A DNA stretch of 64,000 nucleotides from an uncultured virus (IMG/VR IMGVR_UViG_3300045940_000149). Its lineage: Duplodnaviria > Heunggongvirae > Uroviricota > Caudoviricetes. The stretch is taken from IMG/VR virus record IMGVR_UViG_3300045940_000149, one strand, 5' to 3'. Every line of letters begins with the position of its first letter. Within the stretch, counting starts at the first letter, position 1. Positions 2,459-48,900 of this stretch are shown here, in pieces. The notes under the pieces were generated by a model that was not told the origin of the DNA, made no database searches, and worked only from the letters and a program-made list of their open reading frames with translations. The position numbers and the translations under genes were made by a program.

Positions 2459-3706
2459 CTACTCCGCAGCCTCTTGAAGCTCATTGCCCCATGCGTCCCA
2501 TCCCTCGAACCGCTCGCGAGCAAACAACTCGATCCGCGGCAAGGTCGGGAACATGGTCTCGATCATTTCGTGGACAGCAAACGGCTTGGCGCTGTGCTTC
2601 CCACGCGGTGCCGTGAATGCCGATTCGTATTGCTCGCCCGGTGCCGGTGCTGGAATGCTGCCGCGCACGCCGATCAACAGATGTTCGTGCTTGTTCTTGT
2701 TCCAGAAGCCGGTCCCGGCCTTGTCCTTGGTCCAGACGAAATTGCTCTTGTAGGTAAAACCCCACGCCTTGAGCACGTCGATCGCCACGTCGAGCATCGG
2801 CACCGTCGCCCATAAGAAGAGAACACAGTCGCTCGCTGCGGGCACCGCCAGTCGCTTGATCGCTTCGGTGTCCATGGTCGGGTAGTGATTGTCTGCAGCC
2901 CGATCCATGCCAGTATCGTCGCTGTACGGCTCGAACTTCCATGGCGGGTCGGCGTAGATCACGCCGTACCGCTTCTCTGGCAATGCTGTGATCTTGTCGC
3001 CCAATTCGAGTTCACGTTGCTGACGCTTCCGCTTCTTTGACGCACTCTTCGCATCAACCTTCTCCCCAGCCTTGGCTCGCTCGGCGAGCTGGCGCTGCTC
3101 GTCGTGAGGCAACTTCGCCAGCGCGTCGAGCTGTTCGCTAGTGTCGAGGCACGTACCGGTGATCTCCGGCAGAACGACAATGTTCTCGCCGCGGTGAACG
3201 TCGCGAGCGACACTGCTTCGACCCCGACGCGTCTTCTTGGCGGTGTCGGCGACGAAGGTTGAAGTCTCATTTTGAGATTTATACTTGCCGCCCTTGCCGG
3301 TGCGCTTGCCGGGTCTGCCGCCCCGCTTCGTCTCCGGGTGCAGCTTTTCGTACAGCGGCTTGCGTGCCGCGACATGAGCCGCGCGTTCCGCCAGCGTCAG
3401 ATCAGCCCGGATCAGGTTCTCGTCGATCTCGGCGAGTAGCGCAGCATCTGCTTCGAGACCGTTGACGATCGAGCAGCGGATCGAATCCCACTTGAGCTTC
3501 CGTGCCGCTTCGAGACGATGACGACCGGCGATCAGATAGTGCCCGATGCTCTCCGCTGGCCGTATGACGATCGGCTGCAACAAGCCGTTGGCGGCCATCG
3601 ATTTAGCAAGCTCGTCGATGACTTCCGGCCGTAGTCCGCGCATACGGCGGGGAAGCACCGCGATGCCGGACAAGCCGACATCGCGGGTTTCGGGGCCTTT
3701 AGACAA
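2459..3706 (-). CDS. ParB N-terminal domain fused to MT-A70-family adenine methyltransferase
   Basis: GLLQPIVIR..LIAGRHRLEA..ENLIRADL; IYADPPW..HYPTM..LFLWAT..HSAKP..RIELFAR. Confidence 0.85.
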   Translation of the reverse strand: MSKGPETRDVGLSGIAVLPRRMRGLRPEVIDELAKSMAANGLLQPIVIRPAESIGHYLIAGRHRLEAARKLKWDSIRCSIVNGLEADAALLAEIDENLIRADLTLAERAAHVAARKPLYEKLHPETKRGGRPGKRTGKGGKYKSQNETSTFVADTAKKTRRGRSSVARDVHRGENIVVLPEITGTCLDTSEQLDALAKLPHDEQRQLAERAKAGEKVDAKSASKKRKRQQRELELGDKITALPEKRYGVIYADPPWKFEPYSDDTGMDRAADNHYPTMDTEAIKRLAVPAASDCVLFLWATVPMLDVAIDVLKAWGFTYKSNFVWTKDKAGTGFWNKNKHEHLLIGVRGSIPAPAPGEQYESAFTAPRGKHSAKPFAVHEMIETMFPTLPRIELFARERFEGWDAWGNELQEAAE

Positions 3707-6722: not shown

Positions 6723-7559
6723 ATGACGACGTTCGACTCCGTTGCTGAGCCAGCCACCATTGAACCGCCACCGGTGCGCCGCAGCCGAAAAAAGTCAAAA
6801 CCAGATCCTGTTTTCGAGCTGCTGAACAGTCACGCCCACCGGGAATTCATGGAGATCGACAAGCGCATGCTGCTTGTGCCGGTCGAGGACTACCAACGCA
6901 ACGAAGCCGATGGACGGATCTCAACCGAAATTGCCATGCACTACGACCTTGTTGCGTTCTCTTGTCTGCTGGTCATCAAGCGGACGAACGGTGATCTGAT
7001 GGTTGCCGATGGCGGTACGCGCCTGTCCGGAGCACTGAAGCGATCGGACATCACGACTGTGCCGTGCTTGGTATTTTCCGGTCTCACCGAAAAAGAAGAA
7101 GCCGATGTATTCCTGCGCATCAACAACAACCGACGCCGCCTGCAGGTCGAGCAGTTGCATCACGCCGAGTTATTTTCCGATCACGATCTTGCGATACGGT
7201 CACAGCGATTGATCGACCGTCTGCGCAATCACGGGATCGGGTTCGACTCGTTGTCCGGCATGCGATACTGCGTGCGATCGAATATGTCCGCGATCGACAC
7301 GGTCGTCATGATCCTGACTCAGACCATCACCGATCGGCACGTTACCGCACGGGTGATGAAAGGGCTGTTCACCTTGGAAGTCACCATGCGTCGCCAAGAC
7401 AAGACGCTGGCCAAGCGTTCGACAATGAACCGGATCGCCAATACGTTCGGGACGTTCGATGCGGTAGTCAACGCCGTGATCAAACCTCGCACCGCCGGAC
7501 ACGGTGCCGATATGGCCAAAGCGCTGGCTAAGACGCTGCGCATTACCGGAGTGTTCTGA
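6723..7559 (+). CDS. ParB/Srx-like protein (DUF6551-like)
   Basis: DYQR..VADGGTRL..VPCLVF..EEADVFLRIN. Confidence 0.55.
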   Translation: MTTFDSVAEPATIEPPPVRRSRKKSKPDPVFELLNSHAHREFMEIDKRMLLVPVEDYQRNEADGRISTEIAMHYDLVAFSCLLVIKRTNGDLMVADGGTRLSGALKRSDITTVPCLVFSGLTEKEEADVFLRINNNRRRLQVEQLHHAELFSDHDLAIRSQRLIDRLRNHGIGFDSLSGMRYCVRSNMSAIDTVVMILTQTITDRHVTARVMKGLFTLEVTMRRQDKTLAKRSTMNRIANTFGTFDAVVNAVIKPRTAGHGADMAKALAKTLRITGVF

Positions 7560-8260
7560 TGCAGTGCGAGCGGACCATCGATATCAAAGTGCATTCTGTC
7601 AGTTGCAGCGACGAGGATCGTCACCTGCCGCCGACCAAGGAAGCAATCGAAGCGATGAAAGAGTCGCTGACAGCGCACGGCCAGATTCTACCGATCGGTG
7701 TCTATCCAGTTGCCCGCAACAGCTATCGGCTGATCGTCGGCGCGACCAGATTCCGTGCGGCTTCCGAACTAGGATGGGAGAACATCCGCGCTTCCATCTG
7801 GATCGGCACTACGCTCGAATTCCAATTGTATGAGCTGGTCGAAAACGTCAATCGTCGCGAGCTGACCGGCAAACAACGCAGGGAAATGCGTGCCAAGATC
7901 AAGGATCTTCAACGCCAGCGGCTCGCTAATGTCGAACCGTCGAAGGGCGGACGTGGACATAGGGGTGGAGTGAGCGAGGCGGCAAGGCAAGCCGGTGTTT
8001 CTGAAACAACTGCCCGACGCCGTAGAACCGAAACACAGACCGAAACCAAACCTCGCCAGAATACAACGAGTGGCGAGGTTTCCGCCGTCGCCAAGTCACG
8101 ACAACAAAGGGAACAAAAGATTACATCCAGTCTGCCGATCGAGGAATTCAGTCGCTTCAAAGCCCTATGCGACCAGCTCAAGCTGAATATTGCTGATGGA
8201 GTTCGTTATTGCATTCGCGCCGAGCTTGATCATCGCATCCCACGGCAAGCTGCAGAATGA
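7559..8260 (+). CDS. ParB-like protein with HTH
   Basis: HGQILPIGV..YRLIVGATRFRA..ELVENVNRRELT; VSEAARQAGVSETTARR. Confidence 0.7.
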   Translation: MQCERTIDIKVHSVSCSDEDRHLPPTKEAIEAMKESLTAHGQILPIGVYPVARNSYRLIVGATRFRAASELGWENIRASIWIGTTLEFQLYELVENVNRRELTGKQRREMRAKIKDLQRQRLANVEPSKGGRGHRGGVSEAARQAGVSETTARRRRTETQTETKPRQNTTSGEVSAVAKSRQQREQKITSSLPIEEFSRFKALCDQLKLNIADGVRYCIRAELDHRIPRQAAE

Positions 8261-9204
8261 GCAAACGTCGCCACCGTCCCAAGATCGAGAAGCGCCCGAT
8301 CGTGTCGCGGGACGAGTGGCTGGCGTGGCACAAGCAGGACATCACTGCCAGCGTGGTCTCGGCCTTGTGGGGGCTGCATCCGCGCGAGACCGCCGCCGGA
8401 CTGTGGGCCAAGCTCACCGGCGTCGATCTCGGACCGGACGACGAGAACTCCGAGCTGCTGGAGCGCGGTCAGGATCTCGAAGTGGTGGTCGGCCGGAAAT
8501 TCCTGCACCGCCACCCCGGCTGGAAGGTGTTCGCCGCCAAGCACTACTACCGGATCGCAGCGCTGCGTCTCGGCGCGACCCCGGACTTCCACGTGATCAA
8601 GCCGGACGGGAAGAAGGGCGTGCTGCAGGCCAAGACCGTGAACCCGAGCACCTTCCGCACCAAGTGGACAGACGAGACGCCCCCGATGTGGATCATGCTG
8701 CAGACCCTGACCGAGATGATGCTGACCAGAAGCGAATTCGGGATCATCGCAGCGCTGGAGATCGGCGACTTCCGCTACCGGCTGCACACCTACGAAGTGC
8801 CGCGGCACGAAGGGGCCGAGCGCCGGATCGAGGACGCGGTGCGCGAGTTCTGGCTGCACGTCGATGCAGGCAACGAGCCAGTGATCGACTACCAGCGCGA
8901 TAGCGCATTGATCGCCGCCATGTACCCGCGGCATGCGCCCGACAAGATCGCCGACCTGCGCTACGACAACTCGCTGCCCGGCCTGCTCGACGAGCGCGAG
9001 GCGTTGAAGGCCACGCTCGACCGCGCCGGTGAGCGCAAGGATGAGATCGATACCGAGCTGAAGGCCAAGATGAAGGACGCCGAGATCGCGCTGGTCAACG
9101 GCTGGCGGATCTCCAACAAGACCATCGACAAGAAGGAACACACCGTCAGGGCAACCAGCTATCGGCAGTTGCGGGTGGTGCGCGAGCAGGGAGAAGCAGC
9201 GTGA
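8257..9204 (+). CDS. YqaJ/lambda-Exo-like exonuclease
   Basis: EWLAWHKQDITAS, ERGQDLE, LGATPDF, LQAKT. Confidence 0.8.
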   Translation: MSKRRHRPKIEKRPIVSRDEWLAWHKQDITASVVSALWGLHPRETAAGLWAKLTGVDLGPDDENSELLERGQDLEVVVGRKFLHRHPGWKVFAAKHYYRIAALRLGATPDFHVIKPDGKKGVLQAKTVNPSTFRTKWTDETPPMWIMLQTLTEMMLTRSEFGIIAALEIGDFRYRLHTYEVPRHEGAERRIEDAVREFWLHVDAGNEPVIDYQRDSALIAAMYPRHAPDKIADLRYDNSLPGLLDEREALKATLDRAGERKDEIDTELKAKMKDAEIALVNGWRISNKTIDKKEHTVRATSYRQLRVVREQGEAA

Positions 9205-9615
9205 GAGCGATCGACAAGCTGCATTGCGTTCAGCGTGAGCTGCGCTGGCGGTACAAGGTGTTCCCCAAGCGCGTCAACGACAAAAAGATGACGCAGGCGC
9301 AAGCCGACCGCGAGATCAAGCTGATGGAAGAGATCGCCGCCGACTATCGCAAACAGGTCGAGGAAGAGACCCCGGGGTTGCCGGTATGAGCAAGGACGAT
9401 CCCCGCTACGGCCCGCAGATCGTGCCCGGCCGCGCCACCCGGATCGGCGTCGCATACTGCGGAGGCCCGGAATGCGGACTGCCGCACATCGTGCTCTACG
9501 ACGAGAACGGGCACGGTTACGCCGACGCCGTCATCGACGAGGCGATCATGCGCTCGCTGGTCAAGGAGCTGGAGAAAGCATTCGAGCGCGGACTGAAACA
9601 CTGAGAGAGGTCAGT

Positions 9616-10653
9616 ATGAGTACGCAGGAAATCACCGTTGTCAACGCGGGCGCAATCAAGGCACTGCGCGAAAATCTCCACAAGATGACAGACCAGTTTC
9701 GGTTTGCTCTGCCCGCGCACATCCCGCCCGAGCGGTTCATTCGGGTCGTGCTCACCGCGGTGCAGAACAATCCGAAACTGCTCAAGTGCTCGCACCAGAG
9801 CCTGTTCAACGCATGCATGAAGGCGGCACAGGACGGCTTGCTGCCGGACGGTCGCGAGGGTGCGATCGTGCCCTATGGCGACGACGGTCCAGATCAGGCG
9901 CAGTGGCTCCCGATGGTGTACGGCATCCGCAAGAAGGTGAGGAATTCCGGCGCGCTGTCCGATTGGAATTGTCAGGTCGTGCAGGAAGGTGACGCGTTCG
10001 ATTATCAGCTCGGCGATTCGCCCTACATCCATCACAAGCCTGCAGCAAAGGGTGGCCGCACGCGTCCGGTGCTGTTCGCTTACTCGGTGGCGAAGTTCCC
10101 CGATGGCTCGCTCAGTCGCGAGGTCATGAACATCGACCAGATCCGCGACATCCAGAGCAAGAGCAAGGCCAAGCGCGGACCGTGGAGCGATCCCATTTTT
10201 TTCCCTGAAATGTGCCGCAAGACGGTGGCCAAGCTGCACGCCAAGCAGCTCCCCATGTCCACCGATCTCGATCGCCTGCTCCACCGCGACGACGAGCTGT
10301 ACGATCTCAAGGCCGCCAAGGCCGATCGCCGCGACGCCAAACCGCCGTCGTCGGTGGCCGAGATGTTCGACAGCTTCGCCGCCGGTGCCGACGAGTCGGA
10401 CGAGCCCAAGAAGATCGAGGAAGCGCCGCCCAAGGAAGTGCCCAAGGCGGAAGCGCCGAAAGAAGCTGCTGAGCCGGAAGCCAAGGCCGCAGAGCCGGTC
10501 GAGCCGACCGACGCCGAACTCGCCGCCTACCAAGCTGGGACCGACGCCCGCCGCCGGGGCGTCCTTCGCAAGGCGCTGCCCGGCGATCTGCGCACGGCGG
10601 ACAAGACACGCGAGGCGCTGGCGTGGACCAAGGGCTGGGACGAGGCGCAATGA
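9616..10653 (+). CDS. recT: RecT single-strand annealing protein
   Basis: ALPAHIPPERFIRV..AAQDGLLPDGREGAIVPY..EMCRKTV. Confidence 0.88.
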   Translation: MSTQEITVVNAGAIKALRENLHKMTDQFRFALPAHIPPERFIRVVLTAVQNNPKLLKCSHQSLFNACMKAAQDGLLPDGREGAIVPYGDDGPDQAQWLPMVYGIRKKVRNSGALSDWNCQVVQEGDAFDYQLGDSPYIHHKPAAKGGRTRPVLFAYSVAKFPDGSLSREVMNIDQIRDIQSKSKAKRGPWSDPIFFPEMCRKTVAKLHAKQLPMSTDLDRLLHRDDELYDLKAAKADRRDAKPPSSVAEMFDSFAAGADESDEPKKIEEAPPKEVPKAEAPKEAAEPEAKAAEPVEPTDAELAAYQAGTDARRRGVLRKALPGDLRTADKTREALAWTKGWDEAQ

Positions 10654-10661
10654 TGCCGAAC

Positions 10662-11179
10662 GCGGGCCGCCTTGCACTGCTTGAAGCCCATGGGACGAGT
10701 GCTGCCCGCTGGAGCCCGGCCGGTCAGCCATTGAAAGCCAGCGGTCGCGTGCCGGGCTCACTTCTTGCGGTCGCCAGAAAATCTATGAAGCCCAAGGCGT
10801 CCCTGCGACCGCGGAGCCCGGCCATCACGTCGATGACATCCGAGTCGCCGCTGCCGGGCTCACCCATTCCCGTTGCGGTCGCCGCACATCGCTTGAAGCC
10901 CCTGTGGCAAATGCGACCGCCGAGCCCGGCCATCCGCGGGGTGAAACCCAAACAAGAATTGCCGGGCTCACTCTTCACCAATGCGGTCGCCATTCCGCCC
11001 TTGAAGCCCATTCCGCCAGTGCGACCGCGGAGCCCGGCCGGAAGCTCGATGAAACCCACATCACGATTGCCGGGCTCACCCGTTGCGGTCGCCACGCGCA
11101 GGCTGAAGCCCATGGAGCTGGTGCGACCGCGGAGCCCGGCCAGAGCTGCGTTGAACCCCACAGATGGCGTGCCGGGCTC
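10662..11179 (+). ncRNA. TIGR-like guide array 1 (10 units, first degenerate)
   Basis: Alternating TGCGGTCGC-CA-N9-TGANNNCCN-N9-TGCGACCGC and GAGCCCGGC-CA-N9-TGANNNCCN-N9-TGCCGGGCTC units. Confidence 0.88.
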
Positions 11180-11199
11180 ACCCTTTCTGCGAGGCCGAC

Positions 11200-11814
11200 A
11201 TGAAAGCTGACCTGCGAACGATCGCCGCCGACCTGTTGCGGACGCACAAGACGATTGCCGCTGCCGCCGCCGAGCTGGTGACGATGATGATGGCGGACGA
11301 CAAGTTGCAGCTCGCAGTCGCCACCGAGTTCTTGCGCAGTCTCGCCAACACCAAGTCCGCCCCGCATGTGGTTCGCTCCCGCCGCCGTCCTGGTCCGCAC
11401 AAGAGCCCCAAGCAACCGACCGCGGCACAGAAGGCAGGCGCGCTGCGGGCCGAGAAGCAGTACATCGCCTCAATCTTCGACCACCGCCTGCGCGGCGGCC
11501 AGCGGCTCGGTCAGATCCGGGTGCATGAGCTGCGAGCCATCGCCGAAGCGAGCGCCAGCACCGCGACCAGCTTCCTCACCCGCGGCTACGAGGACGCGGT
11601 GGAAGCCATCGCCTGCACGCGCATGACGCAGCACTGCGTCGCCGTCGATCCGTTCGCGCTGGTCAAGGACGTGATCAAGGCGACGATCGCCAAGGACATC
11701 TTCGAGCAAGCAAAGATCGATGCCGCCGAAGTGATCCGCGACGGGTCCGCCAAGCTGGCACGCGACCTGATCGCGCGGGCGCAGAAGCCCGAGCCGCCAC
11801 AGGTCACACAATGA
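11200..11814 (+). CDS. Hypothetical 204-aa protein between arrays 1 and 2
   Basis: GAGG RBS then ATG at 11200; no recognised domain. Confidence 0.7.
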   Translation: MKADLRTIAADLLRTHKTIAAAAAELVTMMMADDKLQLAVATEFLRSLANTKSAPHVVRSRRRPGPHKSPKQPTAAQKAGALRAEKQYIASIFDHRLRGGQRLGQIRVHELRAIAEASASTATSFLTRGYEDAVEAIACTRMTQHCVAVDPFALVKDVIKATIAKDIFEQAKIDAAEVIRDGSAKLARDLIARAQKPEPPQVTQ

Positions 11815-11815
11815 T

Positions 11816-12116
11816 TGCGGTCGCCAGCACATCGCTGAAAACCACCAGCTCAGTGCGACCGCCGAGCCCGGCCGAAGCCGTTGTGAAGCCCACCAACAGA
11901 CTGCCGGGCTCACCTATTGCGGTCGCCACCACTGCTCTGAAGCCCAAGGGACGCGTGCGACCGCCGAGCCCGGCCAATTTCCATATGAAACCCGAACCGG
12001 ACTTGCCGGGCTCACCCCTTTGCGGTCGCCACTTGAGGCTTGAAGCCCATGATCTCAATGCGACCGCGGAGCCCGGCCATTCGATGAATGAAACCCAAGC
12101 CGGGCTTGCCGGGCTC
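11816..12116 (+). ncRNA. TIGR-like guide array 2 (6 units)
   Basis: Same alternating units with 9-nt spacers. Confidence 0.9.
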
Positions 12117-12133
12117 GCCCTTCTGGAGGCCAC

Positions 12134-12997
12134 ATGACCGCCATCACTGACACCATCGCTGAAATGCGCCGCCATCATCGCCGCCGCCGGTTTGCGATGA
12201 AGGAGCAGCAGCGATCGGAACGGTCGCTCGAATCGTTCCTGCGCGAGAACGCGACCGACTGGTCGCCGAGCATGAGCGAGGCCGAGCGCGAAATCAGGAA
12301 CAAGATGGTTCACGCCATCATCAAGACCGTCCGCGACGGCGACACCGCCTCCCCGTTCGCCGACATGGTGCTGATGAGCGATCAGAGCCGCGAGCCGTGG
12401 ACGCGCACACGCGACGTGTCGGAGAAGGCCATGGGCAAGCTGGCGATGACCCTGCCGGTCTATCCATGGATCGAATCGATCCGCGGTGCCGGTGCGCTGG
12501 GTCTCGCCACCATCGTCGCCGAGACCGGTGATCTCGCCAACTATCCCAACCCCGCCAAGGTCTGGTCGCGGCTCGGCTTCGCACCCTACGACGGCTTCGC
12601 CGGTTCGAGCTGGAAGAGGGAGACGTGGCGTCCGCGGGCGCTAACGAAGGAAGAGTGGATCGAGCACCCGTTCTCCGGATCTCGGTACGCGCTCATGCAC
12701 CAGATCGCGGTCTGGCTGGTCAATGCGCAATGGATCGGCAAGGCCAAGAGCGAGAGCGGCGAAGGTGAGCCCAACGGTCCCTACGGCGATGTGTATGCCG
12801 CCCGGCGCAAGCACGCGATGAAGACGCACGCCGATTGGACGGACGGACACCGCCGAATGGATGCTTTGCGTATAACGATGAAGGCGTTCCTCAAGGATCT
12901 TTGGGTCGAGTGGCACCGCGCGGCCGAACAGGTTGCGGAGCCGCCGCCGAAGAAGAAGCGCTCGCGCAAGTCGGACGAGCCGCGCATTGGAGCGTGA
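12134..12997 (+). CDS. tasA: IS110/Nop-domain RNA-binding protein without nuclease domain (TasA-like)
   Basis: WIESIRGAGALGLATIVAETGDLANYPNPAKVWSRLGFAP resembles the IS110 Transposase_20/Nop region; no DEDD RuvC or HNH seen; flanked by dual-spacer arrays. Confidence 0.8.
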   Translation: MTAITDTIAEMRRHHRRRRFAMKEQQRSERSLESFLRENATDWSPSMSEAEREIRNKMVHAIIKTVRDGDTASPFADMVLMSDQSREPWTRTRDVSEKAMGKLAMTLPVYPWIESIRGAGALGLATIVAETGDLANYPNPAKVWSRLGFAPYDGFAGSSWKRETWRPRALTKEEWIEHPFSGSRYALMHQIAVWLVNAQWIGKAKSESGEGEPNGPYGDVYAARRKHAMKTHADWTDGHRRMDALRITMKAFLKDLWVEWHRAAEQVAEPPPKKKRSRKSDEPRIGA

Positions 12998-13004
12998 TCA
13001 TGAA

Positions 13005-13208
13005 TGCGGTCGCCACCACTGCTCTGAAGCCCACCGACTTCGTGCGACCGCGGAGCCCGGCCATCGGCGGCCTGATGCCCTATGAAACCCTGCCGGGCTC
13101 ACCCTTCCTGTTTGCGGTCGCCAGTAGATCGTTGAAGACCGTCTTGGTCGTGCGACCGCCGAGCCCGGCCAACCCGTGGTTGATATCCAGAAAACGTATG
13201 CCGGGCTC
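13005..13208 (+). ncRNA. TIGR-like guide array 3 (4 units)
   Basis: Same alternating units. Confidence 0.88.
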
Positions 13209-13223
13209 ACTTTTCCTAGGGGG

Positions 13224-13610
13224 ATGAACATGCGTACGTACCACGGTTGGCGCGACGCCGACCACACTGCCAAGGTGATCGTGATCGAGGACAGCGGGAA
13301 GGAACACCCGCTCAATCTTCGACTGGATCTGCGCAATCACAGTCCCACCGGCCCGGAGTGGGGTTACGCCGGATCGGGACCGGCGCAGCTCGCGCTCGCC
13401 ATCCTGTGCGATGCGCTGGGAGATGACGAGCGCGCCCAGCGGCTCTACCAGATGTTCAAGTTTAAGGTGATCGCTGGTCTCGACCGCGATCAACCATGGA
13501 CGATGAAGGCGCATGCCGTGAGGATGATGGCCCACATCATCGAGCAGGAACGCAACAGCCATGAGCCATTCAGACACGCGCGGTCGCAGGCGGATCGAGA
13601 TAGCGCATGA
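13224..13610 (+). CDS. DUF6166-like protein
   Basis: RNHSPTGPEWGYAGSGPAQLALAIL. Confidence 0.7.
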   Translation: MNMRTYHGWRDADHTAKVIVIEDSGKEHPLNLRLDLRNHSPTGPEWGYAGSGPAQLALAILCDALGDDERAQRLYQMFKFKVIAGLDRDQPWTMKAHAVRMMAHIIEQERNSHEPFRHARSQADRDSA

Positions 13611-16610
13611 GATTGGAGTGACGTTCCACGATGGATCACCGCACATCGTCATGCGCGATGCCAAGGGCGAAATCTTTGCGGTGGCCATTCTCGAACCGCC
13701 GCACCTGATCGAGATGCTGCAAATACTGATCAAAGCGTCTCACCAGATCCTCGACAACGAAATGCAGAAACGAACCGGAAATCGCCAACGATGCAGTGAA
13801 CGGGGAGAACGACCAATGGGGTTCGCCATGGCCTATGGGATCTGTGTGTGTTGTGGCCAGACATTCGGCTTCAATCCGGTGCGGGTGCCGAGCTGCCGGA
13901 TCAACGGCAACCGCGAGCCGATCTGCGGGATCTGTATTCCGCAGATCAACATTCGCCGCCGGGCCAAGGGGCTGGCCGAGATCATCCCGCTGCCGGACGC
14001 CTATCAAGCCTGCGAGGAATCGGAGCTGCTGATCCTATGAGCATTCCGTGGCGACGGCCGCTCGCGCTCACGCTTAACGCGGACAGTGCGAGAGTCCTTT
14101 GGGCGATGGCGTGGGAGTCAATCAAGCCGACTCCGCTTTGGTTTTGGGAATTGCCATGACCGACCTGACCCCGCGCGAACTGGACCTGTCCGAGCCGGTG
14201 GCGGTTGTCGTAGGTCGCCTGCGCGCCGATCTCGCGGGGGCGAGGAGCGAAATACAGCAGCTTCGGACGGCACTGCGGCGTTTGATAAACGACATCCACG
14301 AGTACGAGCGGGTCAACAATCTATCTCCCAATCCGCCGCGCATGGAATGCTGGGACAGCGTTTTAGAGGCTCGGCATATTCTCGCTGATGGGGACGGAGC
14401 GCCCAAGCCAACCGACCTGACCCCGCGCGAGCTGGACCTGCTGAAGTGGTTGGGCGAGAGCGAGTACAGCCAATATGGGGAATGCTACGGCAAGGATCTC
14501 GACACGCTGGTCGCCAAGAAGCTGGCGCAGATCCATCTGCCGGGAGAGCACCAGAACTTCATCGCCAACGACTTCGCCGGGACCAGAGGCATCATGTACC
14601 AAGCCGTGTCGCTCACCGAAAACGGGCGAGCGCTGCTGGTGGGGATCGAGGGATCTGACGAGTAACCAGTTGTGTGGAGTGCGTCATGTTGGATAGCCGC
14701 AAACTGCTCAAGCGCAAGGGCGACAGCGGACGGAACCAGCAAGTTTTCAAGGCACTGCAGTACGCCGACGAGGACGAGCGCCGCTACACCATCGAGGACA
14801 ACAAGCGCAATTACAGCCACCGCGGCAGCGAAGCGATGGCGCGGCGCGGTGACCATGACACCGCTGACGAAGCCGCCCGCTCGCTGTCGCGGGCCGAAGT
14901 GACCCGAATCGAAGGCGTGGTCGAGCGTGCGCTGCAGGCCCGGCGCTTCAGCGGCGGCACATGGGACGAGCTGGAAGGGCTTACCGGCCTACCCAAGGCC
15001 AGCATCAGCCCGCGGTTCAAGCCGCTGCGACGGCAACTGCGGATCTGCTTTGCGCTCGAACCGGATGTGGCCCAACCGGAGCTGGTATTCGGAGCAGCCC
15101 CCCGCGCTCTTGGGGATAAAGCGTCATGACTGACGCCAACCAATGTCCGACATGCGCGCTTCTGCGCGCCGAAAACGAGGCTCTTTTAGAGCGCATAGCG
15201 GAGCTTTATCGCGCGCAGAAAAGCCGAATATTGTCGGCGCGCTCCGCTGAATACAACGCACTCACCTCTAACGAGAGCAACAATGACTGACATTGAAGGC
15301 GACCAAAGCAAGCGACCGCCAGAATGCAACACCGCACAGCGACCAACGTCCTGTCCGCATATCAAATGCACGTACGAGGGCTACGACGGAGAGCGATGGA
15401 ATTGCAACACTTGTGGACAGTCCTTCTATCTCGACTACGACGAAATGCGATGACCGCACTCAAGCCCGACACGTACGAGCCAACGAAATGAAAACCGATC
15501 TGATGCGCTTCCGGGCCGACATCCCGCTGCTGCTGGAGATCGAGATCGACACGTCGCTGGAGGGCGTGCAGGCGCTGGAAGCGGTGATGCGAGCGTTCGA
15601 GAGCAAGGTGGCGACGGTCACGGTTCAACTGCCGCCGCGCACCGCCTTCGGAGCCCGCGGGATCACTGCCACGCTGAACGGCCGGGTTCGCTTGGAGAAG
15701 ATTGATGCCGATTGACGAAGGCCAGCTCGGCGACGCGCCGATCGAGCAGCGCTACCACGCGCTGATGAACGAGCTTGGCCGGTTCCTCGACAAGATGCTC
15801 AACGGCGAGCTGCCGGAACGCAAGCACGGCTTCGTCCTGATGATGTTCCCGTTCGAGGACACGCACGGTCACTGCAACTACATCTCGAACGCCCGGCGGT
15901 CCGATGTGCTGGTCATGCTCAAGAAGCAGGTGGAACGGTTCGAGGCGCAGAATGAGGTACGGCCTAGTTGATCCTGAACGCCGCAAGTTCGCGGTGGTGG
16001 ATTGTCCCACGATCGAGGACGCCTACGCCCGCGTCGGGCTGGCCGTGGGCGAGGTCGATCACGGCACGGTCTGCCGGTTGGATGGCGGCGGCTCGATCGG
16101 GATCATCGTCTTTCAGTATTCGTTCTACGTCGAGGTCGCCAAGCAGCACTACTTCGCGCTCGGCAGCAAGCTCTATGCCGGGGCCGCGGTGCTCTATCAG
16201 GCCAACCGGTACGGCCAGACCGCCCCGTACGCGACTGCCAATCCGCTGGCACCGCGCTGGTTCCGCAATGCAGCCGAGATCGAAGAAGCGATCCGCGCGG
16301 GCGAGATCACCCGGCCGCAGATCGTCCTGAACGGCAACCTGATCTGGCGCTGGCCGGAACCAAGGCGGCACTGAATGAGCGAGGTATTCCACTTCAACAC
16401 GGTGATCGCGCGGGTGTTCGAGCGCTCGCTGGCCAAGCGCGCGATCAAGGGGCCCAACTACGAGCACGATAAGAGCGACGTGGTGGTCGAGCGCGATCCC
16501 CCGCAATGGTACCTCCAGATCGGTGATGTGTCGTTCATGACCGGACCGGACAAGCCCGATTTCAAGGACGGCGATCTGGTGACGGTCACCATCAGGAAGC
16601 GTGAGAAGCC

Positions 16611-20822: not shown

Positions 20823-21730
20823 ACGCAGCCAAGTTCGGTGAAGAGCGCGTCTCGGTGCTGGAAGCCTACGATGCATGGAGCCAGCAGATCGACCGCTTGG
20901 TCAAATCCGAGAAGACGGCAATGCGGTACATCGTATCGATGGGCCAGCTCAAGCCGTACCTCACCAGCATCATGCTCGACGAAGTCAACGCCAAGCTGCT
21001 GTCGTCGATCGTCGAGGACCGGCGCAAGAAGGTCACCGATGCGACCATCAAGCGCGATCTCTTGGCGCTGTCGTCGGTGATCAAGTATGCCGGTGGCAAA
21101 GGATGGATCGATAGCAACCCGGTGCTGAGCTGGCTGGCACTCGATCAGGTCAACGAAAAAGAAACGCTGATCGTGCTGCCGCGGGCGGAAGACATTGCGT
21201 TGGTCAAGCAGCGCGCCGCGGCGATGATTGGTCACCTGATCGACGCCGCGATCGTCACCGGCGCACGGCAGGACGAGCTGGCGACGGCGGAACGCGCCAA
21301 CATCGACCACAAGCACAAGACGTTTACCGTGGTCGGCAAGCGCAACAAGAGGCGGACCATCCCGCTCGATCGGTTTGACGCCTACCGGGTGCTCACCGAC
21401 GTTCCGACTTATGTCGGATCACCGGTTCTGTTTTGGCACGACAAGGGCGAGGCATACTCGACCCTCTCGGGGCAATTCTATCGAGTGGTCGAAGAGACCG
21501 CAAAGTGGGCGAAGCGCGAGAAGGTGGACTTCAAGAAGTTCACGTTCCACAGCCTGCGCCACCTGTACGCCATCAACAGCCTCAAGGACGGCATGTCGAT
21601 CTACACGCTGCAGTCCCGGCTCGGGCACACCAGCGTGGCGACCACCGAGCGCTACCTGCGAGCAGAGTCCGGTTACCTGACCGCGGAAGAGATCCACGCC
21701 GCGAAGTTCGGGAAGGCGGTGAATTCGTGA
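20660..21730 (+). CDS. int: Tyrosine integrase
   Basis: TGARQDE, GKRNK, FHSLRH, LGHTSVATTERY. Confidence 0.93.
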   Translation: MAAGKRGKLPPGLFWRGTVIWGRKQVGGRRQSYPLGTDNPKIAQTRFEKLEARLNAAKFGEERVSVLEAYDAWSQQIDRLVKSEKTAMRYIVSMGQLKPYLTSIMLDEVNAKLLSSIVEDRRKKVTDATIKRDLLALSSVIKYAGGKGWIDSNPVLSWLALDQVNEKETLIVLPRAEDIALVKQRAAAMIGHLIDAAIVTGARQDELATAERANIDHKHKTFTVVGKRNKRRTIPLDRFDAYRVLTDVPTYVGSPVLFWHDKGEAYSTLSGQFYRVVEETAKWAKREKVDFKKFTFHSLRHLYAINSLKDGMSIYTLQSRLGHTSVATTERYLRAESGYLTAEEIHAAKFGKAVNS

Positions 21731-34843: not shown

Positions 34844-35617
34844 TCACGAGTCGCCATGGTACGGCTCCGCAGGCGGCGGCTCGTTGCGCTTGATGTTGTA
34901 CGGCTTCAAGGCGCTGACCATGTCCGGCCGCATCTGCGTGGTGAGCTGTTCGAGCACGACCTCGGTCGGCACCGGGACTGTCGGGTCGATCGGCACCCCG
35001 CCGCCGCCCGACCAGCTCGATCGCAGCTCGTCGTCGGTGCCGTTCCATGAGTTGACATCAACGCCGCCAGTGACGCCGGGACAGCCCTGCGGCGGTGGCC
35101 CGGCAGTCCCGTCGCCGTACTGCCACAAATACCATTGCGGCCACGTCGAGGTCGGCCAGCTCGGGGTGTTGGAGTAGTGGCAGAGCCACAGCCGCCACGT
35201 GGCGAGATAGTCGTCCCTGCCCGAGAGCTGTTCCTTGATGACGTGGCCGCTGTAGAGCGCGCCGGTGCGGCCGGTCAATCTTTCGATCTCTCTGCAGAAC
35301 TCCTTGAGATCCGACAGGCTGACGCCGTCGTCCTCATGGTCCGGGCAGTAGAGATACGACGGATCGCTGCCCGCCACGTCGAGGAAGAAGCGCGCCTGCT
35401 CGACCATGTTCCCGGGCCGCAGGAAGTGGTACGCGCCCCACAGGAATCCACGCTTGATGAACTCCTTGCGGCGCGGCTCGTAGTCGTCGTCGATGAAGTG
35501 ATCGCTCTCCGTCGCCTTGTGGATGATGCCGATGATCCCGGCGTCCTTGATGGCGTCGTAATCGCTGATCGAATTGTGGTGGCTGATATCGAGCACTCTT
35601 CGATTGATCGTTGCCAT
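34844..35617 (-). CDS. GH25 muramidase endolysin
   Basis: LDISHHN, HKATE, GAYHF, DHE, LWQY, VDVN. Confidence 0.85.
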   Translation of the reverse strand: MATINRRVLDISHHNSISDYDAIKDAGIIGIIHKATESDHFIDDDYEPRRKEFIKRGFLWGAYHFLRPGNMVEQARFFLDVAGSDPSYLYCPDHEDDGVSLSDLKEFCREIERLTGRTGALYSGHVIKEQLSGRDDYLATWRLWLCHYSNTPSWPTSTWPQWYLWQYGDGTAGPPPQGCPGVTGGVDVNSWNGTDDELRSSWSGGGGVPIDPTVPVPTEVVLEQLTTQMRPDMVSALKPYNIKRNEPPPAEPYHGDS

Positions 35618-35621
35618 CGGA

Positions 35622-36548
35622 CTACTCCATCGTGAACGTGTACTTGTTCAAAATCTCGGTCATCACCGGCTCGATCGCCGTCATGATCTCGCTGACGACC
35701 TCTTCGGCGGTGACCGTGTCCGGGTCGGGCGGCAGGATCACGCCCGCGGCCAACGCCTTCCACGTATCCGGACCGATGACCCCATCGACGGTGAGATCGC
35801 TTTCACGCTGGAACTCGCGGGTGGCGGTGTCGGTCGCCGGACCGAAGTCACTGTCCACGTCGAGCACCGGCGTTGCGCCGTTGGCATTGAGCAGCTTCTG
35901 CGCAATCCCGACCCACCGTCCGGTATCACCCTTTTCGAGCATCGGCGGCTTGACCGGCACCGGCGGCCGGTAGCCGGGCGGCCAGACCGCGCCGAGCAGA
36001 CCGGACGTGTACGTTGCGACGTTCACCATGTCGCTTTGGTTTCCGCCGCGGCACTTCCACGCGCCCGAGCTGGTGATCTCTTCCAGCAGCGTGACGTGGC
36101 CGCCGCCTTCTCTCGTGAAGATCATCACGCAGCCCGGCGTCGGCTCGATCGGGAAGCCCCAATCGATCCACGCCTGCGCCCAAAGGAATTTATCGGTGTC
36201 GGTCGGGCCGAACACCGGCCGGATATCGTTCTCCGACATGCAATAGGCGACGGTCAGACCGCACCACGGAGTCGAGTCGTGCTGGTACTGATCGCAGTAC
36301 GACTCCATCTCTGGAAAATTCTGTGCGATCGACTCGGCCATACCGACGATCTTCGGGTTGTCGGCTTCGCCGGGCACTTCGGTCCATCCGCTGATCGCCC
36401 TCATGGTCGATAGCCACGGTGGCGTGCTCGAAGCGGGCACCTTCAACTTCGGCAAGTGTCCTAATCTCGATACGGGCATGGCTTGCGCCTCCCTCGGTTT
36501 GGTTTTCGGTTTAGGCTTGCGCTTGGGCGGCTTGCGTTTCGACGCCAT
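35622..36548 (-). CDS. TIGR02594/NlpC-like cysteine peptidase with PG-binding domain (second lysin)
   Basis: TPWCG..GGHVT..GGNQSD; DSDFGPATDTATREFQ..VDGVIGPDTW. Confidence 0.8.
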   Translation of the reverse strand: MASKRKPPKRKPKPKTKPREAQAMPVSRLGHLPKLKVPASSTPPWLSTMRAISGWTEVPGEADNPKIVGMAESIAQNFPEMESYCDQYQHDSTPWCGLTVAYCMSENDIRPVFGPTDTDKFLWAQAWIDWGFPIEPTPGCVMIFTREGGGHVTLLEEITSSGAWKCRGGNQSDMVNVATYTSGLLGAVWPPGYRPPVPVKPPMLEKGDTGRWVGIAQKLLNANGATPVLDVDSDFGPATDTATREFQRESDLTVDGVIGPDTWKALAAGVILPPDPDTVTAEEVVSEIMTAIEPVMTEILNKYTFTME

Positions 36549-45998: not shown

Positions 45999-48900
45999 TA
46001 CAGCGACAAGCCTCTTCCGTAGTTGCGCATGAATGCGGGGTGGACGACCTTGTTCTCACGCCGCAGCTCGTCGGCGCGGGCGGCGTCGTAGTACAGCCGC
46101 TGAGCGACGATGCGGGTGGACATCGGCTTGCCGAACCGCCACGCCACCACTCGCGGCAAGGGCCGCGCGGTCTCGATCAGGTGGAAGGTGAGTGCCGCGT
46201 GCAGCTTGACCAGCGCCATGTAGCTCGCTTCGTCCATCTGGTCGGCGGCGATGATCTCGGCCTCGTTGAAGGCGGCGTTCATATCGTCCTTCAGCTTGAC
46301 CGCGTCCTCGCGGCTGAAGAACCGCATGTCGGCGATCACCCGGCACTCGGCCGCCATGATCATCCACGTCAGATGGTGCTTCACGGTGACTGCACCGACG
46401 CTGACCGCCGTGTCGGCCACCACCGTCTTGCGCACGTGCGCGAGCTTCTTTTGCGTGATGCCAGCGGTGACCGCCAGATCGAAGCATTCGGCCAGCGGCT
46501 CGCCGATCAGGTTCTTCTGGATCAGCAGCGCGGCGTGGGTGATCACGTCGCCGCATTGCGTCCGAAGGTCCGATCCCGGCCGCCCGCGGGTGGGCGAAAC
46601 CCACAGCAGCTCGCGCAAGGCCCGCTGCACGATGCGGGCTGCTTCCTGTGCTTGGCTCTTGACCATGTGCGTCCACTCGATCGGTTCGAGGATATCGATG
46701 TGACCGACGATGAAGATGCCGTCCGGCGCTTCGCTGGCCTGCAGGATGCCGGGCAGCGGCGGGGATTCGGAGAACGCGGCAACGTCCCGAGCTTCGGTCG
46801 CAGCCAGCGTGCCGGTGAGGACATCGAGCGCCAACCCGCTGAAGGCCGCCTGATCGGGCGCGTCGGTTGCCGCCAGCACACCGGTCGAGATCGGGACGAG
46901 ATTGCCGACGAAGGCAGCGGTATCGATCGCCTCGCTTGCGGCCAGCGTACCGGTAGCGACGATCGTGCCGGAAAACGCGGCAACGTCGGGGGCGTCGGTG
47001 GCCGCCAATGTGCCGGTGGCGACCGCCTTTCCAGAGAACGCCGCCACGTCCGGCGCGTCGGTGGCAGCGAGAGCACCAGTCGCAACCGCCGTGCTGGTGA
47101 ACGCCACGACATCGGGAGCATCGGTGGCCGCCAGCACACCGGTCGCAACGATCGTGCCCGAGAAGGCTGCGCTGTCCACAGCCTCGGTGGCGGCGAGGGT
47201 GCCGGTGGCGACGATCGTTCCAGAGAATGCGGCAGTGTCCGGTGCCTCTGTGACCTGCAGGTGGCCCGGCCAGTAGACGCTGCCGGTGCCCGCCGCGGTG
47301 TCCGCCGCCTCGACTACATTCAGTATGCCGCCGGGCGAGACAACGTCGGCGGTCATGAAGAGCGTATCGGCCGCCTCGCTGGCGGCGAGCGTCAGACCCC
47401 AATAGACAGAACCAGCAAGCGCGGCGGTATCGAGCGCGGTCTCGGTGGCCGCGAGGGTCGCCGTCCAGTGGACGGTGCCAGCCAGAGCCGCAACATCCAG
47501 CGCCTCGGTCGCCGCCAGCGTGGCGTTCCATGCAACGGAACCGGCCAGAGCTGCAACATCCGGCGTATCGGATGCAACCAGCGTCGCCAGCCACTCGATC
47601 TGCCCGGCAAGCGCCGCACCGTCTGCCTGTTCGACCGCAGCGAGGGTGCCGCTGCTCTCAAGCGCCACGCCCTCGCCGATGAAGGACGCCTGATCGATGG
47701 CTTCGGTTGCGGCCAGTGTGCCGGTGGCAACCGCTGTTCCGGAGAAGGCGGCAACGTCGTACTGTTCCGTAGCGGCGAGCGTTCCTTGTGCGACGCTCTG
47801 GCCGGTAAAGGCCGCGGTATCCAGCACCTGCTCAGTAGCGGCCAGTATTCCTTGCGCAACGCTCTGACCGACAAAGGCGGCGGTATCGAGCGCGGTCTCG
47901 GTGGCCGCCAGTGTTGCAATCCACTCGACCTTTCCGGCCAGAGCCGCAACATCCAGCGCTTCAGTCGCCGCCAGTACCGCCCGCCATTCAGCGTTCCCGG
48001 CGAATGCGGCAGTGTCAGGTGCCTCGGTGACGGCCAGCGAGCATGAGAAATACACGCTTGCGGACAGCGCCGCGGTATCGAGCACGTCGCTCGCCGCCAG
48101 CGTACCAGTGGCCACAATGCCGCCTGAGAAGGCCGCGGTGTCCAGCGCCTGCTCAGTTGCCGCCAGTGTTGCGGCCCAATAAACCGATCCGGCAAGAGCT
48201 GCGGTGTCCGCCTGCTCGGTCGCGGCCAGTGTGCCATTGTTGACTGCTGTTCCGGAGAAGGCGGCAACGTCCGGAGCATCGGTGGCCGCCAGCGTTCCTT
48301 GTGCAACGCTCTGGCCAGAGAATGCGACCACGTCCGGCGCTTCGCTGGCCGCCAGCACTGCATTCCATGCAGCCGATCCATTGAGAGCGGCAACATCGGG
48401 AGCGTCAGTCGCCGCCAGCGTGCCATCGATGATACCCGCCGTAACGTCGCCTGCGAACGAAGCAGTGTCCGGCGCATCGGTCGCTGCCAGCGCCGCGAGA
48501 ATCCCGCCGCCGCTCTCGCTGGCAATTGCTGCGACCGCGATAGCCGTGGTTGCAATGCCGAGATCGTCGGCGGTCTCGGCGAGAACAATGGGGCTGGTGA
48601 CATCGCCATCGAACTCGGCAGTGTCGGGATCATCGGTTGCGCCGAGAACGGCATTGAAGATGCTTTCGCCAGCGAACGAAGCAGTGTCCGGATCGTCGGT
48701 CGCGGCAAGGTCGCCCTCGACCGCTGGCGTCGTGACCTCACCGTCGAAGGACGCAACATCTTGGTCATCGGTTGCATCTAGGTCGCCACTGATGATCTCT
48801 TGGAAAGCGACGTAGGCGTTGGCAATGTCGCACGCGACCCAAGTCGGGTTCGACGCCCCGCTGGTGCCGGTGACGATCCGGCTTTCCGCCCGGGCACACA

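Follow-up and report, generated by a model that had tools for sequence, protein, structure and literature searches.

The stretch of DNA analyzed here (the window, 64,000 nucleotides of the uncultured virus record IMGVR_UViG_3300045940_000149 from IMG/VR; Duplodnaviria; Heunggongvirae; Uroviricota; Caudoviricetes) carries, between positions 10662 and 13208, what is, judging from its sequence and from structural models, very probably a complete stem-loop TIGR-TasA system, in which arrays of hairpin units with two guide segments each (spacers A and B) surround the gene of the nuclease-less protein TasA. We explain the locus, with considerable confidence, as belonging to a temperate myophage and encoding a stem-loop TIGR-TasA system, the guides of which may be directed against related phages. 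TIGR-Tas systems were first described in 2025 (Faure 2025, PMC12045711), and the window locus is in itself a regular, well-formed representative of a system known from publications of 2025 and 2026. The wider clade to which it belongs, in turn, offers an entry to the question of its role, as it comprises many related phages, long arrays and a handful of candidate pairs of guides and targets in the tasA genes of rivals.

A preliminary description of this DNA had listed 20 hairpin units in three arrays (10+6+4) between positions 10662 and 13208, and all of them were recovered on the + strand at the same coordinates. The arrays and the two genes associated with them are the following:

10662..11179, + strand: TIGR array 1, 10 stem-loop tigRNA units (10662-10709, degenerate; 10712-10759; 10767-10812; 10814-10861; 10875-10920; 10922-10969; 10983-11028; 11030-11077; 11085-11130; 11132-11179)
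11200..11814, + strand: companion gene, 204 aa, predicted all-helical product with an RRRxGPH motif
11817..12116, + strand: TIGR array 2, 6 units (11817-11862; 11864-11911; 11919-11964; 11966-12013; 12022-12067; 12069-12116)
12134..12997, + strand: tasA, 287 aa, predicted Nop-domain protein with a putative N-terminal coiled coil and no nuclease domain
13006..13208, + strand: TIGR array 3, 4 units (13006-13051; 13053-13100; 13114-13159; 13161-13208)

The units follow the formula stem-CCA-N9-UGAnnnCCA-N9-UG-stem and fall into two types which alternate along the arrays, namely T1 units of 46 nt, GCGGTCGC-CA-N9-TGAAGCCCA-N9-T-GCGACCGC, and T2 units of 48 nt, GAGCCCGGC-C[A/G]-N9-TGAAACCCA-N9-T-GCCGGGCTC. 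A single base separates a T1 unit from the T2 unit behind it, and a pyrimidine-rich linker of 7-13 nt, with CTT present in seven of the ten linkers, leads from T2 to the next T1 unit; the double hairpin thereby recurs with a period of 102-108 nt (family D1 of a repeat search, 9 copies). Both variable segments are exactly 9 nt long in 20/20 units, within the 8-12 nt typical of the two spacers in stem-loop TIGR-TasA systems, and their framing by CC(A) and TG, also described before, was recovered as well, the two motifs corresponding to box C and box D. The stems consist of 8-9 perfect pairs in 19 units and contain a single mismatch in the degenerate first one (10662-10709), the register of which was reset by eye. 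No Rfam family matched the arrays.

These features can be compared directly with the published systems, for which we refer to the available text of the publications, supplements of the preprints being outside the scope. In TIGR arrays, box C is CCA and box D is UG at the ends of both repeats (Faure 2025), and when written in this frame the window units (..GC-CA-[A]-UGA..CCA-[B]-U-GC..) fit exactly. The same publication presents a TasA accompanied by three sub-arrays with 13 stem-loop units in total, and a later survey reports 2,559 stem-loop arrays located upstream of, downstream of or around tas, in most of which the loops measure 9 nt, together with a CUU motif where the stem begins and a function of TasA as reversible RNA-guided repressor (Xu 2026, bioRxiv 10.64898/2026.09.09.750476). 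Since box motifs, spacer lengths, stems and arrays all fit these publications, the locus belongs to a described kind with a described architecture; the earlier suggestion that the architecture might be new was not upheld.

The assignment is supported by the properties of the protein encoded at 12134-12997. In Pfam, the sole match above the curated cut-off was Transposase_20, the C-terminal domain of IS110 transposases (E 3.1e-5, aa 113-163), and the same search returned neither a RuvC or HNH family nor the N-terminal DEDD transposase domain, which agrees with the IS110 C-terminal signature and the lack of a nuclease read from the sequence beforehand. PHROGs likewise assigned the protein to 'transposase' families. 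A profile built from 33 homologues and compared with all PDB sequences matched TaTasR (9mty_A, E 7e-4) and, at low significance, TasH (E 0.47). An AlphaFold (AF2) model of good quality (pLDDT 88.2, pTM 0.82) gave a consistent picture in Foldseek searches against the PDB, as ranks 1-10 were all taken by TasR or TasH chains (E 7e-5 to 2e-3, TM 0.46-0.56), followed by the IS110 recombinases ISCro4 and IS621 (E 0.05-0.1). The structure and profile comparison which the preliminary description had proposed as a check was hereby carried out, and with the Nop-fold relatives TasR and TasH leading both searches it substantiates the classification as TIGR-Tas with a nuclease-less TasA. The N-terminal ~100 residues of the model contain helices only (3-40, 49-67, 76-104), which is consistent with a coiled-coil dimerization region. 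The family is large: a word-indexed search yielded 293 tasA homologues at E<=1e-3, and an exhaustive search 2,545 representative clusters at E<=1e-3 and 1,503 at E<=1e-10. An IS110 transposase acting with a bridge RNA was considered as identity and rejected, given that no N-terminal DEDD/RuvC-like domain was matched and that the IS110 recombinases rank below all Tas chains.

Related loci were collected from a Xanthobacteraceae metagenome-assembled genome (one locus on a 4.6-kb contig), from IMG/VR (24 loci) and from JGI metagenomes (79 loci), and were scanned with a detector which demands UGA at the loop start, a fixed spacing of 2+9+9+9+1 and at least 6 stem pairs. In 25 related loci it found 397 units on the strand of tas and 22 on the opposite strand; in all 105 sources the numbers were 978 and 46, with 690 distinct guides. 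The count on the tas strand is thus far above chance. Among 417 units, the base before the spacer was C in 403 and the next one A in 363, the loop ended with CCA in 369-410, and the base following spacer B was U in 400; the UGA at the loop start, seen in 417/417, is built into the detector. The detector makes no demand on stem positions 7, 8 and 9; in 366 distinct units they were paired at rates of 98%, 90% and 65%, respectively, and several pair types occurred at each position, pointing to compensating changes. Such covariation is also evident between loci, for example in the 5' arms GAGCCCGGC, GCGCCCGGC and TGATCTCGGC, each accompanied by a matching 3' arm. Within the set L002-L021, alternation of the same two stem classes as in the window (..CGGTCGC and ..GCCCGGC) was seen in 19 of the 20 loci, the identical pair L017/L018 being the exception, even though the TasA proteins of these loci are just 52-65% identical to that of the window; more distant loci have variable stems. 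The spacers, on the other hand, differ completely among phages with TasA proteins 52-73% identical.

The statistics of these guides bear on the geometry of the sites they read. In this clade, a site seems to comprise 17 bp, with the order 5'-B(1-9) + rc(A)(2-9)-3' (rc, reverse complement), in which both ninth bases read one central base pair. Among the 690 guides, A9 and B9 are the sole covarying A/B position pair, being Watson-Crick partners in 47% of the guides compared with 25% expected (z 14) and pairable in 479/690 (69%) when G.U is included; the window itself shows 11 Watson-Crick and 6 G.U combinations in its 20 units (17 pairable). The spacers furthermore display a three-base GC periodicity, for which B and rc(A) are coherent at an offset of 2 mod 3 only. 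The z value of this coherence was 3.1 in the initial set and 4.06 in 325 further, independent guides; the full 690 guides gave 5.07, and exclusion of position 9 gave 4.64. In the same guide sets no phase signal was obtained when A and B were compared on the same strand, and random 18-mers from genes of this phage, used as control, behaved as expected at each gap. This coherence indicates that many spacer pairs represent duplex DNA of coding-like character, the two spacers reading one strand each, with an offset of the half-sites of -1 or +2.

Searches for matching sites led to the same arrangement. Twelve geometries were tried, each with 16 scored bases and at most one mismatch, against 614 kb of related DNA and with shuffled-pair controls, and only B(1-8)-N-rc(A)(2-9) was enriched: 34 guides produced 70 matches, of which 5 were perfect. 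In ten shuffled-pair controls of the same geometry there were 19-35 matches from 12-21 guides, and perfect matches, which were counted in three shuffles, numbered 0 in each. After extension to 1.06 Mb, including ten full phage contigs, 75 matches from 51 guides were obtained, again with 5 perfect ones, compared with 30-39 matches from 28-34 guides and 0 perfect ones in the controls. Among 52 confident matches of 16 guides, the central base, which was not scored, is able to pair with A9 in 85% of cases (42% at random) and with B9 in 75% (40% at random); for single matches with one mismatch this agreement was at random level. Three independent signals agree on a single 17-bp geometry. It is also compatible with the available text on the structure of PlTasA, in which box C and the 5' ends of the spacers lie at the outer unwinding junctions (Guan 2026, bioRxiv 10.64898/2026.08.11.744272); this places the 3' ends of the spacers at the centre, as the 17-bp order requires. 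The 3' overhangs reported for TasR cuts (Faure 2025) agree with the spacer order deduced here as well.

As the sole cause of the covariation, a pair between A9 and B9 within the guide RNA was considered. The enrichment of G.U pairs speaks in its favor, and it could account for the covariation itself, but such an RNA-RNA pair leaves the phase offset, the matches and the agreement of the central base unexplained. The published 18-bp rule, for its part, gave nothing above background. When applied to the 64-kb window in both orders and with gaps 0-2, which includes the 18-mer search (A plus reverse complement of B) proposed in the preliminary description for this genome, it yielded no match with at most one mismatch, and counts at two to three mismatches equaled the controls; for 417 guides against 270 kb of related DNA there was 1 match, with 1-10 in the controls. 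Within the searched literature (preprint supplements aside), no mention of spacer overlap or covariation in stem-loop arrays was found.

Some units of the window deserve a separate remark. In unit 13053-13100, spacer B (ATGAAACCC) equals the loop consensus shifted by 1 base, and A9:B9 is C:C; the unit may therefore contain two loop motifs and one true spacer, being degenerate and perhaps a recombination scar. Spacer A is identical in units 11919 and 13006, units 10875 and 11817 have 8-9 letters of spacer A in common with a 1-nt shift, and units 10662 and 11919 are alike in both halves. This sharing of half-guides suggests that units diversify by exchange of halves at the conserved loop, or else that they aim at variants of one site. 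In unit 10983-11028, spacer A (TTCCGCCCT) nearly equals spacer B (TTCCGCCAG), which makes the predicted site near-palindromic; its 18-bp form had one match in IMG/VR, and its 17-bp form only matches with 2 mismatches.

The 34 guides with matches in the 614 kb allow a look at possible targets. Eight of them match tasA of other loci, three the companion gene and 23 lie elsewhere; for tasA, 20 shuffle runs gave a mean of 2.65 guides and a maximum of 5. In all eight cases the tasA of the guide's own locus differs from the guide by 2-4 mismatches at its best-matching place, which is the orthologous site in 6/8. Several guides match conserved sites in many phages: guide L004/3924 does so in 9 loci, one of them perfectly, guide L043/1229 also in 9 loci, and guide L006/3926 in 3 loci, all perfectly. 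For six guides (L004, L007, L031, L043, L045, L076; reading frames assigned by eye), the differences between own and target sequence fall on third codon positions, and the targets are conserved motifs such as FAMK(V/I)Q, VNAQWI and MKAFLK. A match on the own contig was found for just 3 of the 51 guides with matches in the larger set. This pattern fits guides directed against rivals and not against self. According to the available text of both publications, the natural targets of TIGR-TasA cannot yet be determined (Xu 2026) and targets and role are unknown (Faure 2025); in the searched literature, preprint supplements aside, no natural targets are reported.

Guides of three other loci (L023, L033 and L007) match the phage of the window at 1 mismatch, their number being about 2x the chance level. 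The sites are located at 47433 and 47889 in a 1,198-aa baseplate/tail gene, where they belong to an internal repeat, at 20990 in the integrase gene, at 36312 in the endolysin gene, at 3058 in the gene of the ParB-methyltransferase and at ~88731 in a gene of the extension past the window (see below).

A number of observations weigh against guides aimed at rivals and against the mechanism proposed below. The excess of real matches is small (~17/690 guides), the matches in the companion gene are not significant (3 guides, 1.4 expected), and the searched DNA is centred on tasA loci, which introduces a bias toward tasA as target. Pairing of A9 with B9 is seen in just 69% of the guides, with G.U enriched. 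None of the window guides themselves could be assigned a convincing natural target: across 1.06 Mb of DNA from related phages they had four matches at 1 mismatch compared with ~1 expected, which is weak (two of the four lie on one 81-kb contig), and against the ten full related phage contigs none was clearly enriched, the best being G004 with 6 matches and 3.2 in the controls. Exact scans of IMG/VR with seven window guides returned 1, 9, 16, 4, 20, 1 and 4 matches, which are chance-like in number and lie in unrelated genes, none of them in tasA, in the companion gene or in a homologue of a gene of this phage; for guide 11919, three of the four fall in a single 743-aa ORF that is carried by near-identical contigs and has no homologue in the related phage DNA. 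Finally, in a minimum-energy fold of four units (10860-11085) the T2 hairpins form as drawn, but the identical T1 arms pair across units and not within them, and correct folding would consequently depend on co-transcriptional order or on protein. The idea that alternating stems prevent mispairing between neighbours was dropped, as the T1 arms still cross-pair in this fold.

With these points taken into account, interference between phages, i.e., the silencing of rival phages, is the most likely role of the system, and we give it an even chance of being correct. The preliminary description had proposed competing elements as targets; this receives support from the guides of related loci, which match genes of rival phages, but no such match was established for the 20 guides of the window. 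Silencing of chromosomal genes of the host during infection or lysogeny, named as a possibility in the available text of Xu 2026, is rather unlikely, although the codon-like periodicity of the spacer pairs would fit any high-GC coding DNA, that of the host included, and ~95% of the guides are without a match in the phage DNA searched. The matches that were found are phage genes, however, and a complete turnover of spacers at TasA identities of 52-73% is better explained by fast-changing rivals than by conserved host genes.

Regulation of the phage's own genes, be it autoregulation of TasA or a switch between lysis and lysogeny, is very improbable. It would suit the early-operon position in a temperate phage with its own repressor and integrase, and one match with 2 mismatches lies in the own companion gene at 11527. 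Yet, under the 17-bp rule the 20 window guides had 0 matches with at most one mismatch in 90.7 kb of their own phage; two mismatches gave 2 matches, at the level of the control (2.7), and three mismatches gave 25, below the control (40.6); the 18-bp geometries gave nothing in the window, and the scarcity of own-contig matches across the clade (3/51) points in the same direction.

That the units are box C/D-like guides which take TasA to RNA for modification or binding can be considered still more remote. A Nop fold and a two-spacer layout are indeed common to box C/D sRNPs and TIGR-Tas (Faure 2025). Against this, published TasA and TasR proteins act on DNA and TasR is inactive on RNA substrates, according to the available text of Faure 2025 and Xu 2026, and the phase signal ties B to rc(A), i.e., to two strands of a duplex, which is unexpected for a single RNA target. 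The motifs, moreover, are CCA and UG and not RUGAUGA and CUGA, the boxes that form K-turns in box C/D sRNPs, which have fibrillarin and L7Ae as partners; for the same reason, and as no Rfam family matched the arrays, the units were not classed as box C/D sRNPs. Least credible of all is a decayed IS110-type element or a set of merely structured intergenic repeats with no guide function, as it has only the family names in Pfam and PHROG on its side and is opposed by the match to the C-terminal domain alone (no DEDD/RuvC part being found by Pfam), by the conservation of the protein in hundreds of loci, by 9-nt segments, box motifs and compensated stems that are kept while spacers change, and by the near-perfect matches above controls for a subset of the relatives' guides.

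For a TIGR-TasA system that silences rival phages, the following course of events can be envisaged. The three arrays, the companion gene and tasA would probably be transcribed as one RNA within an early recombination operon, from which the 46-48-nt hairpins may be released at the pyrimidine-rich linkers by a host RNase, as suggested by Xu 2026. Each hairpin would then be held by a TasA dimer via CCA (box C) and UG (box D) around both spacers, a mode of binding expected from homology, and at a short DNA site spacer A would pair with one strand and spacer B with the other. As TasA lacks a nuclease, the complex would stay on its site and stand in the way of transcription or replication, in line with what has been published for other TasA proteins. 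Most of the targets would lie in protein-coding DNA of related phages other than the carrier, their tasA genes included. Taken as a whole, the reading of a soil alphaproteobacterial-type clade with phage-against-phage TIGR-TasA systems, 17-bp sites with a shared centre, targeting of conserved coding motifs of rivals including tasA, and a conserved companion protein acting together with the system is tentative and falls slightly short of an even chance. If true, natural targets and a biological role would be known for TasA for the first time, together with a targeting rule unlike the published 18-bp one, and the corrected site rule would matter for the design of guides in TasA tools of this branch. 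What the clade has yielded on the 17-bp rule, on tasA of rivals as a target and on the companion gene should be regarded as leads, and the geometry signals and guide-target pairs of the clade open both role and targeting rule to simple experiments.

The companion gene was conserved next to tasA in 22/25 related loci according to a hidden Markov model (HMM) built from the alignment of its homologues (n=38), upstream in 19 and downstream in 3 of them; the three misses comprise one locus truncated upstream and one identical pair. Loci L012, L014 and L015 have the companion downstream of tasA, the pair being kept while the order is not. In the 105 sources, many of which with respect to this gene are short fragments, it was found in 68. 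The structural model of its product (pLDDT 87.8) contains the invariant RRRxGPH within a basic linker. No sequence match to the companion was obtained in Pfam, PHROG or the PDB, no Foldseek match at E<=1e-3 and no usable match in the ESM Atlas, and the best VIA-align result (Z 6.5) concerned generic helices. A complex prediction of TasA with the companion had a score of 0.00, which counts neither way. The only partner of TasA named in the publications consulted is a ParB-like one, reported for dual-repeat loci (Faure 2025), and the text of Xu 2026, supplements aside, does not mention accessory or companion genes, alternating stems or spacer covariation.

The genomic surroundings contain the following features, mostly named after PHROG matches:

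2459-3706 (-): ParB-methyltransferase fusion
5534: repressor
6723-7559 and 7559-8260, + strand: ParB-like genes, 3-4 kb upstream of the arrays in the same operon
8257: RecE
9472..10653, + strand: gene of a RecT-like annealing protein (Pfam RecT, E 5.5e-35; PHROG phrog_148, E 4.9e-58), directly upstream of array 1
13230..13610, + strand: following ORF in the operon, 127 aa, with its ATG at 13230 preceded by GGGGGA; in frame with ORF 13176-13610
20660: integrase
34844-36548: lysis genes
up to 61385: baseplate, tail and sheath genes

From these matches, the window is classified by sequence as belonging to a temperate myophage. The ParB-like genes, RecE, RecT, array 1, the companion gene, array 2, tasA and array 3 follow each other in one orientation, with 2-20 nt between gene ends and arrays, and no promoter-like or terminator-like site was found on the + strand between 9000 and 13300. 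A RecT homologue was present near tasA in 10/25 related loci. For the ORF at 13230-13610 no family and no PHROG match was found, the 64-kb window yielded no tRNA, and a megablast search of positions 9000-14000 against GenBank phages gave no match. The virus record G001 (IMG/VR, 77,254 bp) originates from the same phage, as positions 13464-64000 of the window equal 77254-26718 of G001 with 100% identity; it adds 26.7 kb past the end of the window and thereby provides the 90.7 kb of own phage sequence used above. All sequence of this phage stems from metagenome contigs. The G001 record stops 256 bp past array 3, and a copy of the companion protein with 99% identity is known from 10 contigs, the longest of 94,535 bp; assemblies may tend to break near the repeats.

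Among the known systems, PlTasA from a Peromyscus leucopus gut contig resembles the window locus in being nuclease-less, in having two 9-nt spacers with box C/D motifs and three sub-arrays around the gene, and in residing on a viral or mobile host element, as far as the available text of Faure 2025 and Guan 2026 goes. It differs in that the window has two alternating stems, which are conserved across phages with TasA proteins 52-65% identical, and a conserved 204-aa companion gene between the arrays; furthermore, the statistics of the window clade lead to 17 bp with a shared centre, whereas the structures and designed targets of PlTasA have nine pairs per spacer. No PlTasA chain turned up in PDB searches with the window protein. 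MbTasA and BlTasA of the TIGRFinder catalogue share with the window the arrays around tas and the 9-nt loop (available text of Xu 2026); their CUU-type pyrimidine motif at the base of the stem may have a counterpart in the CTT of the T2-to-T1 linkers. TaTasR (PDB 9mty) and SpTasH (9w02 and 9vzx, among others), dual-repeat TIGR nucleases and the closest matches of the window protein in sequence and fold, have the CCA and UG motifs and the opposite-strand rule of the spacers in common with it, but possess RuvC or HNH domains and use 36-nt tigRNAs that lack a long stem. In dual-repeat arrays, no covariation of spacers A and B was seen and half-sites were judged non-overlapping (Faure 2025, the available text of which also names type IV and V-M CRISPR), in contrast to the strong covariation of A9 and B9 in the window clade. 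The bridge-RNA recombinases of the IS110 family (IS621, 8wt6/8wt9; ISCro4, 9t56) share the Nop-like RNA-binding domain with the window protein, which, unlike these enzymes, has no DEDD domain, is accompanied by many short guides and not by one bridge RNA, and is not flanked by transposon ends. A CRISPR array was rejected as identity of the repeats, as they are hairpins with two 9-nt segments and two alternating stems and not one 25-36-nt repeat with single spacers of similar size, for which cas genes are the usual company. Virus-borne mini-CRISPR arrays and plasmid type IV CRISPR systems target close relatives and do not need to cut them. They parallel the window locus in its proposed role only, protein family and guide architecture being unrelated.

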